From Escherichia phage Pu-Krd-SF3, in the sequence record PQ249397: 64,000 nucleotides of DNA, one strand, 5' to 3'. This document shows, in pieces, positions 59,393 to 62,493 of the stretch (positions are counted from its first letter, which is position 1; every line of letters begins with the position of its first letter). The notes beneath the pieces were generated by a model. It was not told where the DNA came from. It saw nothing but the letters and a program-made list of their open reading frames with translations, and did not search any database. The position numbers were made by a program, and so were the translations under genes.

Positions 59393-59866
59393 ATGTTATT
59401 GACTGGCAAATTATATAAAGAAGAAAAACAGAAATTTTATGATGCACAAAACGGTAAATGCTTAATTTGCCAACGAGAACTAAATCCTGATGTTCAAGCT
59501 AATCACCTTGACCATGACCATGAATTAAATGGACCAAAAGCAGGAAAGGTACGTGGATTGCTTTGTAATCTCTGTAATGCAGCAGAAGGTCAAATGAAAC
59601 ACAAATTTAATCGTTCTGGCTTAAAGGGACAAGGTGTTGATTATCTTGAATGGTTAGAAAATTTACTTACTTATTTAAAATCCGATTACACCCAAAATAA
59701 TATTCACCCTAACTTCGTTGGAGATAAATCAAAGGAATTTTCTCGTTTAGGAAAAGAGGAAATGATGGCTGAGATGCTTCAAAGAGGATTTGAATATAAT
59801 GAATCTGACACCAAAACACAGTTAATAGCTTCATTTAAGAAGCAGCTTAGAAAGAGTTTAAAATGA
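59393..59866 (+). CDS. 49: Endonuclease VII (Holliday junction resolvase)
   Basis: 157 aa; MLLTGKLYKEEKQKFYDAQNGKCLICQREL... matches remembered T4 gp49. Confidence 0.85.
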   Translation: MLLTGKLYKEEKQKFYDAQNGKCLICQRELNPDVQANHLDHDHELNGPKAGKVRGLLCNLCNAAEGQMKHKFNRSGLKGQGVDYLEWLENLLTYLKSDYTQNNIHPNFVGDKSKEFSRLGKEEMMAEMLQRGFEYNESDTKTQLIASFKKQLRKSLK

Positions 59867-60600
59867 ATGTAGTATATAAACTATCATTTATTAGTAGAAT
59901 TAATGCTAAAACCCCGCCATATTATTATATTGGAAGTAAAACCAATTGCACTTTTGACGGAACGAATATTATTGATAAAAATGGTAAATTTTATTATTCG
60001 TCTTCGTCATCTTCCGAATTTCAAAAAGCCCTGTTGAAAGAAACGCCGAAAGTTGAAATATTATATTTTCAATTAGTCGGAGATGAACAAATAACTAGCA
60101 TTGAAGCTGAATTTCAAAAGAATATAGAAAAAGATATATGGAATAAAGAGTATTTCAATTTAGCATATGCTGACGGTCAATTTACAACGTATGGTATTTC
60201 TCCTTCTAAAGAAACTAGAGAAAAGCAATCAATAACCATGATTAAAAGAAATCGTAATAAAGGTAAAAATCATGGATTTTATGGAAAGCATCATACTAAT
60301 TTAGCCAGAAAGAAAATATCAGAAGCTTCTAAAAAATACTGGAAAGAAAATCCACATCGTGGATTTTCGCATACAAAGGAAGCTAAAATTAAAATTGGAA
60401 TTTCATCTTCTATCAGGCATAAAGGAAGTGGAAATCCGATGTATGGTGTAAAACCTTGGAAAACTCCGAGAGCAATTAAATCTGGTACTTGTATATTATG
60501 GTTAAAATACGCAGAAATTTTATATGATTATTTAAGTCCAGATTTTAAAAGTAAATCATCTATTTTTGCGGATTTAAACTTACCGAAATTTAGAATTTGA
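59863..60600 (+). CDS. GIY-YIG family (seg-like) homing endonuclease with NUMOD3 repeats
   Basis: 245 aa; N-terminal VVYKLSF...YYYIGSK (GIY-YIG-like), repeats GKNHGFYGKHHTNLARKKISEASKK / GFSHTKEAKIKIG. Confidence 0.6.
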   Translation: MNVVYKLSFISRINAKTPPYYYIGSKTNCTFDGTNIIDKNGKFYYSSSSSSEFQKALLKETPKVEILYFQLVGDEQITSIEAEFQKNIEKDIWNKEYFNLAYADGQFTTYGISPSKETREKQSITMIKRNRNKGKNHGFYGKHHTNLARKKISEASKKYWKENPHRGFSHTKEAKIKIGISSSIRHKGSGNPMYGVKPWKTPRAIKSGTCILWLKYAEILYDYLSPDFKSKSSIFADLNLPKFRI

Positions 60601-60675
60601 TAATTTCATCAAAAGGTTTAAAATGGGTTGGAACCCATATTTAGACGAAGAATTTCAAAAGGATAAATTAGAATT

Positions 60676-62493
60676 ATGTCTTTAGAGAAAGATGTTTTAA
60701 ATTTTATTTCAAATAAAGATAAAGAATTAAATACCGAAAATGCCAACAAAGATTCTCGTGTCTTTCCAACAAAAAGAGATTTAATGGCTGGTATTGTTTC
60801 TAAACATATCGCTTGTAGTATTCTTCCAAGCCATATTGTAAATGCTCATAACGTCGGATTAATTCATTTTCATGATTTAGATTACAGTATATCATTGCCT
60901 TTTACTAATTGCTGTTTAGTAGATTTAAAAGGAATGCTTGAGAACGGATTTAAGCTCGGTAATGCACAGATTGAAACTCCTAAATCAATCGGTGTTGCTA
61001 CTGCAATTATGGCACAAATTACTGCACAGGTTGCTTCACATCAGTACGGCGGAACGACTTTTGCTAATGTAGATAAAGTACTTTCTCCTTATGTTAAACG
61101 CACCTATGCAAAACATATTGAGGATGCAGAAAAATGGCAAATCGCTGATGCGTTGAATTATGCCCAATCTAAAACAGAAAAAGACGTATACGATGCATTC
61201 CAAGCTTATGAATATGAAGTAAATACTCTCTTTAGTTCAAACGGACAAACGCCTTTTGTGACAATTACATTTGGTACTGGAACTGACTGGACTGAACGAA
61301 TGATTCAGAAAGCAATTCTGAAAAATCGTATTAAAGGTCTTGGTCGTGATGGGATAACTCCTATTTTCCCTAAACTTGTTATGTTCGTTGAAGAAGGTGT
61401 TAATCTTTATAAAGACGATCCGAACTATGATATTAAGCAGCTTGCTCTAGAGTGTGCAAGCAAAAGAATGTATCCTGACATCATTTCGGCTAAGAACAAT
61501 AAAGCTATCACTGGTTCATCTATTCCTGTTTCTCCAATGGGTTGTCGTAGTTTCTTGAGTGTATGGAAAGATTCGACTGGTAATGAAATTCTTGATGGAC
61601 GTAATAATCTTGGTGTTGTAACACTGAATCTTCCTCGCATTGCATTAGATTCTTATATTGGAACACAGTTCAATGAACAGAAATTTGCCAAATTGTTCAA
61701 TGAACGAATGGATTTATGTTTTGAAGCTTTGATGTGTAGAATTAGTTCCTTAAAAGGAGTTAAAGCTACTGTTGCTCCTATTCTTTACCAAGAAGGTGCA
61801 TTCGGGGTCCGTCTTAAACCTGATGATGACATAATTGAGTTATTTAAAAATGGTAGAAGTTCAGTGTCCCTAGGATACATCGGTATTCACGAATTGAATA
61901 TTCTTGTCGGTCGTGATATTGGACAGGAAATTTTAACTAAAATGAATGCTCATCTTAAGCAGTGGACTGAAAGAACTGGTTTTGCTTTTAGTTTGTATTC
62001 TACACCTGCTGAAAACCTTTGTTATCGCTTCTGTAAACTTGATACTGAGAAATACGGAAGTGTAAAAGATGTTACTGATAAAGGCTGGTACACTAACAGT
62101 TTCCACGTTTCAGTAGAAGAAAATATTACTCCGTTTGAAAAGATTTCTCGCGAAGCCCCGTATCATTTCATTGCAACAGGCGGTCACATTTCTTATGTTG
62201 AACTTCCTGATATGAAAAATAACCTAAAAGGTCTTGAGGCTGTATGGGATTATGCTGCACAACATTTAGATTATTTTGGTGTTAACATGCCAGTAGATAA
62301 ATGTTTTACGTGTGGAAGCACTCATGAAATGACTCCTACTGAAAACGGATTTGTTTGTTCTATTTGTGGAGAAACTGATCCTAAAAAGATGAACACAATA
62401 AGAAGAACTTGTGGTTATTTGGGAAATCCGAACGAACGTGGATTTAATCTCGGCAAAAATAAAGAAATCATGCATAGGGTTAAACACCAATGA
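60676..62493 (+). CDS. nrdD: Anaerobic ribonucleoside-triphosphate reductase, uninterrupted (no intron)
   Basis: 605 aa continuous ORF; C-terminal Zn-ribbon CFTCG...CSICG and glycyl-radical motif RRTCGYLG. Confidence 0.9.
   Translation: MSLEKDVLNFISNKDKELNTENANKDSRVFPTKRDLMAGIVSKHIACSILPSHIVNAHNVGLIHFHDLDYSISLPFTNCCLVDLKGMLENGFKLGNAQIETPKSIGVATAIMAQITAQVASHQYGGTTFANVDKVLSPYVKRTYAKHIEDAEKWQIADALNYAQSKTEKDVYDAFQAYEYEVNTLFSSNGQTPFVTITFGTGTDWTERMIQKAILKNRIKGLGRDGITPIFPKLVMFVEEGVNLYKDDPNYDIKQLALECASKRMYPDIISAKNNKAITGSSIPVSPMGCRSFLSVWKDSTGNEILDGRNNLGVVTLNLPRIALDSYIGTQFNEQKFAKLFNERMDLCFEALMCRISSLKGVKATVAPILYQEGAFGVRLKPDDDIIELFKNGRSSVSLGYIGIHELNILVGRDIGQEILTKMNAHLKQWTERTGFAFSLYSTPAENLCYRFCKLDTEKYGSVKDVTDKGWYTNSFHVSVEENITPFEKISREAPYHFIATGGHISYVELPDMKNNLKGLEAVWDYAAQHLDYFGVNMPVDKCFTCGSTHEMTPTENGFVCSICGETDPKKMNTIRRTCGYLGNPNERGFNLGKNKEIMHRVKHQ

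Follow-up and report, generated by a model that had tools for sequence, protein, structure and literature searches.

Layout of the gene 49–nrdD–nrdG region

The window, the whole 64,000-nucleotide stretch of DNA analysed here, matches the T4-like Escherichia phage Pu-Krd-SF4 (PQ759884) at 100% identity. Towards its end it carries gene 49, an endonuclease gene that we call seg, nrdD and nrdG, with the following features:

59393–59866, + strand: gene 49, encoding recombination endonuclease VII (ORF; Pfam Endonuclease_7 and Endonuc-dimeris)
59863–60600, + strand: Seg-type endonuclease gene, truncated allele, 245 aa (ORF, Pfam, PHROG, alignments, model)
60596–60600, + strand: frameshift site, TTT here against TT in 13 of 13 other copies read
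60599–60685, + strand: 3' part of the seg frame orphaned by the frameshift, 28 codons (DNFIKRFKMGWNPYLDEEFQKDKLELCL) and a stop (+1-frame translation)
60676–62493, + strand: nrdD, large subunit of anaerobic ribonucleotide reductase, 605 codons, intron-less (ORF; Pfam NRDD and Gly_radical)
60676–60892, + strand: seg-linked diverged tract, nrdD codons 1–72 (sliding identity; codon comparison with T4)
61213–61214, + strand: empty nrdD group I intron site, after nrdD nt 538 (comparison with intron-bearing and intron-less alleles)
62426–62493, + strand: nrdD 3' end, segH-less form (comparison with phage SF1)
62490–62960, + strand: nrdG, encoding the activating enzyme (ORF; Pfam Fer4_12; identical to SF1)

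The gene 49 product is 100% identical in protein sequence to T4 gp49, and the seg ATG shares bases with the gene 49 stop codon (ATGA). At the other end of the region, the nrdD stop codon runs into the nrdG start, and both mobC and segH are missing from this junction. The depositors of PQ759884 labelled the 59863–60600 ORF 'homing endonuclease'. An initial annotation of this DNA, made from the letters alone, had described nrdD as one continuous 605-codon ORF, in contrast to T4 nrdD with its group I intron and I-TevII, and had placed a 245-aa endonuclease ORF across the gene 49 stop; all of this is as described, the T4 intron measuring 1,033 nt. Its further statement that the endonuclease gene abuts nrdD has to be revised: in this allele a frameshift has cut a 273-aa gene down to the 245-aa ORF and so opened a gap of 75 nt before nrdD. 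The ORF is real and its coordinates exact; what had been overlooked is the truncation.

The frameshift comes from one extra T (TTT at 60596–60598), which creates an in-frame TGA at 60598–60600, followed by TAA. In all 13 other copies read, seg encodes 273 aa, and in intact alleles its last 10 nt are shared with the start of nrdD. The length of the matches (808 nt, against 809 nt in the window's record) indicates the same protein length and overlap for all 47 other full-length records; by this measure, of the 48 full-length records, the window's alone has the extra base. The 28 C-terminal residues removed are invariant, with no variable codon past codon 241 in 13 intact copies, and include a conserved FK-x-GWNP-x-LD-x-EFQK motif that also occurs in the proteins P0002 and P0004. 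Model confidence is low in the C-terminal half of the protein, so it is conservation that suggests a possible role in DNA binding for the lost stretch. The window's seg allele is most likely impaired or dead, an early step of decay in the life cycle of a homing endonuclease.

A competing explanation, which we consider possible although the less probable one, is that the extra T entered the Pu-Krd-SF4 sequence by mistake before deposition and that the real phage has an intact, functional 273-aa endonuclease. The base occurs in 1 of 48 full-length records by match length and in 0 of the 13 other copies read, the sibling phages SF1, SF2 and SF5–7 are intact and otherwise 99.9% identical here, and purifying selection over the rest of the gene is strong. 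Against an error, the change from TT to TTT involves no long homopolymer, and SF4 truly differs from its siblings nearby, having neither segH nor the segH-linked nrdD 3' tract, and is therefore a distinct genome. Decay of seg is moreover documented in OLB35, FL18 and L052 (see below).

Identity of the endonuclease gene

Because seg recurs at at least 95% identity in 49 records, and because pN/pS is 0.18 across its 13 distinct intact copies, we regard it as a real gene and not a chance ORF. Pfam recognises NUMOD3 in two stretches of the 245-aa ORF (E 4e-7), in line with the initial annotation, and the protein matches PHROGs 7504 (E 6e-34), 314 and 655, all of them 'homing endonuclease'. A GIY-YIG-like N-terminal domain spans residues 1 to ~105 and is followed by the NUMOD3 repeats and then by the first part of the C-terminal module. 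The best match to the predicted fold is the GIY-YIG catalytic domain of I-TevI. In the alignment, V4-Y5 of the seg protein line up with (G)IY and Y22-I23-G24 with YIG, and E81 and N99 are invariant or nearly so over 18 and 35 aligned homologues, carriers of PF01541 included. The canonical GIY-YIG arginine (R27 of I-TevI) has no alignable counterpart, and members of the subfamily have K26/N28 in its place, together with an invariant R12; the same alignment likewise leaves SegG and I-TevII without a counterpart of this arginine.

Profile searches placed the protein less readily. Pfam gave no PF01541 match at E ≤ 10 for either the full protein or the N-terminal domain alone, and hhalign against the PF01541-carrying homologues returned a weak match (E 7e-4, only 27% probability). 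Foldseek of the seg model against the PDB found nothing, and PDB sequence searches, by phmmer with the single protein and with the subfamily profile, found nothing relevant. The predicted GIY-YIG alpha/beta fold, the GIY, YIG, catalytic Glu and structural Asn motifs and the pairing of a nuclease with NUMOD3 modules are all present, as in modular Seg-type enzymes. The modularity is visible in P0003, a protein encoded between gp5 and 5.1, which has the nuclease domain in common with seg (57% identity) and a different C-terminal half. The gene also has the orientation of its neighbours, lies outside any intron or intein and is optional among close relatives. The 59863–60600 ORF is thus a free-standing Seg-type homing endonuclease gene, whose activity is predicted from sequence.

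The closest characterised relative of seg is T4 SegG (gene 32.1), which is 40% identical over residues 1–126 (E 9e-27); both proteins carry the unusual motif MN(I/V)VY...PPYYYIGSK...NC.F. SegG (Liu et al. 2003) is free-standing, is oriented like its neighbours, has no upstream intergenic promoter of its own and, at a distance and with co-conversion, targets the essential gene beside it (PMC2988022). We rejected seg as a SegG orthologue, since the match is confined to the N-terminal 126 residues and since the loci and C-terminal regions differ: SegG lies between genes 59 and 32 instead of at 49/nrdD, has 210 aa and no NUMOD3 repeats, and its C-terminal region has no significant BLAST similarity to that of seg, which also disposes of a similarity there that MAFFT had suggested. 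SegH was rejected as well, being a 276-aa protein encoded between nrdD and nrdG, where the window has no gene. The only SegH-like match within the window is a paralogue at 33270–33542.

Insertion geometry, the linked nrdD tract and proposed homing

Among ~973 records that match the 49–nrdD–nrdG stretch, the 49 with seg at at least 95% identity fall in two genera, Tequatrovirus and Mosigvirus. Between these genera seg is 97–98% identical, against only 80% for gene 49. In the Mosigvirus copies identity jumps at gene 49 nt ~360, and the cross-genus comparison has the last ~110 nt of gene 49 moving together with the seg block. A scan of IMG/VR with the seg protein returned only two loci, both already known.

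Where seg is absent, nrdD starts at the gene 49 stop or within ~15 nt of it, a rule that covers T4 and every seg-less locus in which nrdD adjoins gene 49 (about 25 loci). The initial annotation had named the universal presence of the endonuclease here in intron-containing T4 as an outcome that would count against it; T4 has nothing between gene 49 and nrdD. The seg ATG of the window occupies the position of the T4 nrdD ATG. This geometry shows that the ancestral overlap of gene 49 and nrdD is the exact insertion site of seg, which uses the old nrdD translation start. No late promoter (TATAAATA) for seg was found within 13 kb upstream on the + strand, and sigma-70-like matches are no commoner than in shuffled sequence, which characterises seg as an apparent cassette with no recognisable promoter.

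Downstream of the insertion, nrdD codons 1–72 are only 62–73% identical in nucleotides to every seg-less allele compared by sliding identity. Set against T4, 24 of these codons are identical, 20 synonymous and 28 non-synonymous, and the tract has a sharp boundary at codon ~73. It occurs at at least 95% identity in 49 records, 48 of which bear seg, and seg and tract are linked in 48 of the 49 seg records. Comparison across genera shows that the mobile unit comprises approximately the last 110 nt of gene 49, seg and the first 220–270 nt of nrdD. We found no donor lineage for the tract, in that its only seg-less carrier is the deletion derivative OLB35. Identity to the seg-linked nrdD 5' end of L052 (66%) is only marginally higher than to T4 (64%).

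Other genomes hold the gene in various states of loss. OLB35 has lost seg except for its first seven codons, which read in frame into the seg-type nrdD tract, and in FL18 the 3' end of seg is truncated and nrdD is absent. L052 carries a broken, 58%-identical homologue at the same locus, placed after a 55-codon remnant of the resident nrdD, so that the junction between cassette and resident nrdD falls at nrdD nt ~165.

The reading that best accounts for these observations, to which we assign a probability of about 0.72, is that of a Seg-type homing cassette with its target in the nrdD 5' end, a recoded tract there, a decaying copy in the window and no involvement of the intron. In a mixed infection, the enzyme would bind and cut the conserved nrdD 5' region of seg-less phages, probably near nrdD nt ~165. 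The phage recombination machinery would repair the break from the seg-bearing genome, and repair would copy in seg plus the recoded nrdD codons 1–72; the carrier would be shielded from its own enzyme by the ~30–38% nucleotide divergence of the tract. The tract is accordingly read as the probable resistant form of the endonuclease target, with the predicted break region near 60840 in the window and the target within nrdD nt ~1–220.

This is the intron-independent homing that the initial annotation had proposed as one of two options, and it is the best explanation for a gene that is patchy (49/~973), crosses genera and is linked in 48 of 49 cases to a bounded diverged tract. The identity across genera, the linkage and the sharp boundaries are the marks of horizontal movement with co-conversion of flanks, as in Seg-type elements. 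Free-standing T4 endonucleases cut far from their own genes, are inherited with co-conversion and often are promoter-less cassettes (PMC2988022). The proposed mechanism is that of T4 SegF, termed 'intronless homing', in which a neighbouring gene is cut in the endonuclease-less phage and repaired from the carrier, with preferential inheritance that includes the adjacent allele (Belle et al. 2002; PMC2988022). Cutting of gene 56 by SegF was shown experimentally (PMC2988022), whereas the target of seg is predicted from comparative genomics.

We think it unlikely that the true recognition and cleavage site lies outside the tract, say near the gene 49 stop or where gene 49 and nrdD originally met, with the tract as foreign donor DNA that merely hitch-hiked. 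Such a site would be in keeping with the co-transfer of ~110 nt of gene 49 between genera, and destruction of the junction by the insertion itself would also give immunity. Yet seg-bearing and seg-less Tequatrovirus have gene 49 sequences that are 97–98% identical all the way to the junction, so that gene 49 offers no protective differences beyond the junction itself. OLB35, moreover, keeps the tract after losing seg, the L052 cassette joins the resident nrdD at nt ~165 and not at the 49/nrdD junction, and characterised Seg enzymes cut at a distance, inside the neighbouring gene (PMC2988022).

Still less probable, in our judgement, is that seg is kept for a benefit to the phage, such as localized marker exclusion of competitors or translational coupling to nrdD, and is not purely selfish. 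Marker exclusion is established for T4 Seg enzymes (PMC2988022), and in intact copies the 10-nt overlap couples translation of nrdD to that of seg and so constrains precise loss of seg; but ~95% of related phages are without the gene, it has been lost or broken in four independent genomes, and the purifying selection on its protein (pN/pS 0.18) is equally expected for an actively homing selfish element.

The literature searched yielded no account of an endonuclease at the 49/nrdD position. The 49/nrdD seg is an ordinary Seg-family endonuclease of a class already well understood: one more member of the family, at a locus outside the T4 literature searched, and with no bearing on any open question. 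Its modest value is that of a clean natural example in which the whole homing-endonuclease life cycle can be seen at a single site, from intact genes in two genera, constrained by purifying selection, through frameshifted (the window) and 3'-truncated copies, to a deletion footprint that keeps the resistant allele.

The nrdD intron and neighbouring mobile elements

The initial annotation had given weight to the intron-less state of nrdD, suggesting competition with intron-encoded endonucleases as the other option. Comparison does not support this: lacking the intron is the norm, and seg and the intron coexist. The nrdD intron is present in only 27 records of the collection, and T4 laboratory strains make up many of them. 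Of these 27, at least 7 have seg as well; seg accompanies both the intron and I-TevII in fPS-2, Lv5cm, G8, Manna and F26. The flanks of the intron site in the window are of the type common to all intron-less alleles and not of the intron-linked type. The inferred target in nrdD codons 1–72 lies upstream of the intron site (nrdD nt 538), at a distance of ~320 bp or more. A link between the intron-less state of nrdD and seg is not supported, and the contrast with the T4 intron is not meaningful. I-TevI and I-TevII, for their part, are encoded inside introns and cleave no more than ~25 bp from their insertion site (PMC2988022), whereas seg lies outside any intron.

The intron is nominally commoner in seg records (at least 7 of the 49, compared with at most 20 of the other ~924; odds ratio 7.5), with a Fisher p of 2e-4 that is unreliable because the records are not independent, several being RefSeq duplicates or T4 laboratory strains. 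One speculative reading, to which we give little credence, would explain this enrichment of a rare intron. Under it, nrdD has three homing elements that target it independently: Seg acts on the 5' end, the intron with I-TevII on nt 538 and SegH on the 3' end. The 5' Seg would serve as a helper, its break and the long resection after it carrying the intron and I-TevII of the donor, and perhaps segH too, into recipients in a form of trans or collaborative homing.

A direct interaction of seg with the intron system is improbable too, whether as competition with I-TevII or as a break that mobilises the intron in trans in the manner of mobE. Like seg, T4 mobE is free-standing and neighbours a ribonucleotide reductase gene in which a group I intron can reside. 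Its product, an HNH nicking enzyme, has been shown to mobilise the nrdB intron with I-TevIII, by trans homing (PMC2790892); the difference is that intron mobilisation was shown for mobE, whereas the window has no nrdD intron. In favour of such an interaction are the nominal enrichment of the intron given above and a predicted break region only ~320–370 bp from the intron site, within typical co-conversion distances (PMC2988022). But seg-bearing phages show all four combinations of intron presence or absence and segH presence or absence, and linkage is therefore loose. The co-occurrence of seg with the intron speaks against mutual exclusion or competition, the intron site of the window is that of an ordinary intron-less allele, and the intron is absent from 97% of T4-like records regardless of seg.

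SegH offers a parallel at nrdD itself, as it is, like seg, a free-standing GIY-YIG/NUMOD3 endonuclease that flanks this gene. It differs in lying on the other side of nrdD, in place of mobC, in being ~20% identical to seg in the alignment and in having a canonical GIY-YIG sequence. Found in RB3, T6 and LZ2, it is annotated in AY262138, AY262139 and AY262137 and is the 276-aa protein of SF1 and others; segH is present in the sibling phages of the window and absent from the window. SegH was reportedly studied by Sandegren, Nord and Sjoberg in 2005. As with seg, its gene is linked to a recoded end of nrdD, here the last 68 nt: between the segH-bearing sibling SF1 and the window, all 29 differences fall within the last 68 nt of nrdD. 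Each end of nrdD is thus found recoded wherever it has an endonuclease gene as its neighbour.

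Gene layout and family of the junction endonuclease

Positions 59300-62600 of the window matched Escherichia phage Pu-Krd-SF4 (PQ759884) at 100% identity; this T4-like phage came from piglet faeces and was isolated on E. coli B. Its sibling isolates SF1, SF2 and SF5-7 matched at 99.9%. The initial annotation had described a GIY-YIG endonuclease gene beside an intron-less nrdD; our ORF list of the window reproduced its ORF coordinates, and the observation is correct. The endonuclease gene, referred to here as seg, lies between gene 49 and nrdD.

Genes at the 49/nrdD junction of the window (ORF list, with Pfam matches)
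59393-59866: gene 49; Pfam endonuclease VII
59863-60600: 245-aa ORF (seg), its ATG sharing bases with the gene 49 stop (ATGA); Pfam NUMOD3
60676-62493: nrdD, a single 605-codon ORF; Pfam NrdD
62490-62960: nrdG; Pfam NrdG

In T4, by comparison, a 1033-nt intron with I-TevII sits inside nrdD, the nrdD start is directly overlapped by the gene 49 stop, and nrdD is separated from nrdG by mobC. In T4 and all seg-less T4-like loci with nrdD beside gene 49 (~25), nrdD starts at the gene 49 stop or no more than ~15 nt from it, and the window seg ATG occupies the exact position of the T4 nrdD ATG. No late-promoter consensus was found near the window seg gene, which therefore looks like a promoter-less cassette transcribed on the gene 49 message; several T4 seg and mob genes have been described as such cassettes (PMC2988022). 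Separately, a predicted hairpin (59862-59892, z = -2.9) encloses the seg start codon, and a stem-loop followed by a T-run (59362-59386) lies just 5' of the gene 49 start. Either might act in translational control, for which there are reported precedents among other T4 genes and endonucleases.

The depositors of PQ759884 labelled the 245-aa ORF 'homing endonuclease'. Its initial assignment as a GIY-YIG/NUMOD3 protein holds, although Pfam returned only NUMOD3 (E 4e-7) and no GIY-YIG match in this ORF. Over its first 126 residues the protein shares 40% identity with T4 SegG (E 9e-27), it matches PHROG 7504 'homing endonuclease' (E 6e-34), and alignments with homologues carrying PF01541 show conservation of the YIG motif (Y22-I23-G24), Glu81 and Asn99. 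In the same alignments the canonical GIY-YIG Arg has no counterpart in the seg protein, nor in SegG or I-TevII; profile-profile comparison was weak (E 7e-4, probability 27%). An AlphaFold model gave a confident N-terminal domain (pLDDT ~90-97 over residues 1-100) and low confidence in the C-terminal part. We conclude that the protein starts with a divergent GIY-YIG domain resembling that of SegG, which NUMOD3 repeats and a C-terminal module follow.

We rejected the identification of seg as SegH, a different endonuclease encoded between nrdD and nrdG in SF1 and other relatives, where it matches, at 98-100% identity, the proteins labelled SegH in the records that Sandegren and co-workers produced for RB3, LZ2 and T6; segH is absent from the window. 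The literature searched yielded no name or description of the 49/nrdD endonuclease. seg belongs to a well-known class, is itself uncharacterised and already has a generic GenBank annotation; the window copy is truncated.

Mobility of seg and the linked nrdD 5' tract

Among ~973 records matching the 49-nrdD-nrdG stretch, 49 contained seg DNA at ≥95% identity, with carriers in Tequatrovirus as well as Mosigvirus. Identity between the two genera is ~80% for gene 49, compared with 97-98% for seg and 96-98% for the first 217 nt of nrdD; the shared block runs from ~110 nt before the gene 49 end to ~270 nt into nrdD. Within Tequatrovirus, gene 49 of carriers and non-carriers is 97-98% identical up to the junction. 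Codons 1-72 of the window nrdD (60676 to ~60892) show 62-73% identity to every seg-less allele compared, returning to ≥92% from codon ~73; relative to T4, 24 of these codons are identical, 20 synonymous and 28 non-synonymous. This tract occurred at ≥95% identity in 49 records, 48 of them seg carriers. Across 13 distinct intact seg copies pN/pS was 0.18, showing that purifying selection acts on the seg protein in the population.

The weight initially given to the missing nrdD intron was not borne out: only 27 records, many of them T4 laboratory strains, carry the intron, and so intron-less nrdD is the default. Nor did the data favour competition with I-TevII, since at least 7 of these 27 records also carry seg (Manna, G8 (two records), Lv5cm, F26 and fPS-2 (two records)), so seg and the intron do occur together. 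By a naive Fisher test the intron even seemed enriched in seg carriers (odds ratio 7.5, p 2e-4); as the records are not independent, we take this as no more than a hint of possible trans-homing. At the empty intron site of the window, between 61213 and 61214, the sequence is the one found in all intron-less alleles; those with the intron have a distinct set of substitutions flanking the insertion site.

Truncation, decay and loss

In SF1, fPS-2 and Lv5cm the homologous gene spans 822 nt (273 aa), and its final 10 nt overlap the nrdD start. The window carries an extra T (TTT at 60596-60598, TT in the others) that creates an in-frame TGA at 60598-60600 and orphans the final 28 codons (60599-60685). 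The 245-aa ORF first reported represents a truncated allele of a 273-aa gene, and the 75-nt 'gap' 5' of nrdD is a by-product of the frameshift, which shortens the seg ORF. seg was intact in 13 of 13 other copies read, and the extra base is unique to the window's record among 48 full-length database records (match length 809 nt versus 808 nt); it may be a real mutation or an error in the deposited genome. All variable codons in the 13 other copies fall at or before codon 241, and the residues lost include FK-x-GWNP-x-LD-x-EFQK, a motif that also occurs in two distant homologues, P0002 (58% identical) and P0004. Lacking this invariant segment, the window allele is probably impaired, a judgement drawn from conservation, as model confidence is low in the C-terminal part.

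Three exceptional loci are instructive. Mosigvirus OLB35 (MH992122) has no seg gene, and its nrdD opens with MNVVYKL, from the seven initial codons of seg, joined in frame to codon ~9 of the seg-linked nrdD allele (L050, the OLB35 locus, 2480-2700). The fusion is a functional-looking 605 codons and a precise deletion footprint of seg loss. In Escherichia phage FL18 (PP400780; Mosigvirus; locus L051, 2527-4955), a 3'-truncated seg (669-nt ORF) comes after gene 49, with segH and then nrdG directly behind it; nrdD is wholly deleted, leaving nrdG without its partner. A metagenomic contig (Logan SRR27536177; L052, 2188-3180) carries at this locus a homologue with 58% identity that is split into pieces of 50 and 222 aa. 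Gene 49 is followed there by a 55-codon remnant of the resident nrdD, then by the broken homologue and finally by a complete nrdD whose 5' end differs; the homologue's ATG adjoins the remnant at nrdD nt ~165. The arrangement amounts to a partial target-gene duplication made by endonuclease insertion. Together with the window frameshift, these loci illustrate the course expected of a homing endonuclease gene, from invasion through maintenance to decay and loss.

Proposed homing and neighbouring endonucleases

The observed insertion geometry, linkage, cross-genus transfer and decay series support the initial proposal of a freestanding endonuclease next to its target. From them we infer the most likely cutting and repair steps. 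The enzyme would recognise and cut the conserved T4-type nrdD 5' region of seg-less phages; the L052 junction points to a candidate cut near nrdD nt ~165 (window ~60840), where the tract is most diverged. Repair of the break by recombination with the carrier genome would then bring in seg along with nrdD codons 1-72 in their recoded, resistant form. Such a mechanism would be 'intronless homing', as described for SegF, SegG and others, where the enzyme cleaves within a neighbouring gene, distant from the endonuclease gene (PMC2988022).

Several further endonuclease genes were noted. A contig from ENA (ERZ13617658; L053, 3001-3822) encodes a 273-aa protein between gp5 and 5.1, the segC position in T4; its nuclease domain is 57% identical to that of seg and its C-terminal half is unrelated, a putative example of domain shuffling yielding a new target. 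The window and SF1 nrdD genes differ at 29 positions, all in the last 68 nt (window 62426-62493; SF1 locus L002 3626-3693). segH lies directly 3' of nrdD in SF1 and is absent from the window, and nrdG is identical in both. The 68 nt resemble a recoded tract linked to segH, a counterpart of the seg-linked 5' tract, and imply recent segH gain or loss between sibling isolates.

Elsewhere in the window, a free-standing GIY-YIG Seg-like ORF at 33135-33935 (+) (...MHFYLYKITNKINNKIYIGVHS...) shares 54% identity with the first 93 residues of SegH, its true start probably being an internal Met. At 49171-49951 (+), a mob-like gene of the HNH type, with 48% identity to the T4 MobC N-terminus, comprises three successive short ORFs (75, 70 and 79 aa), mob-likeness being seen for the first only; this succession suggests that it may be broken, a decayed endonuclease gene.
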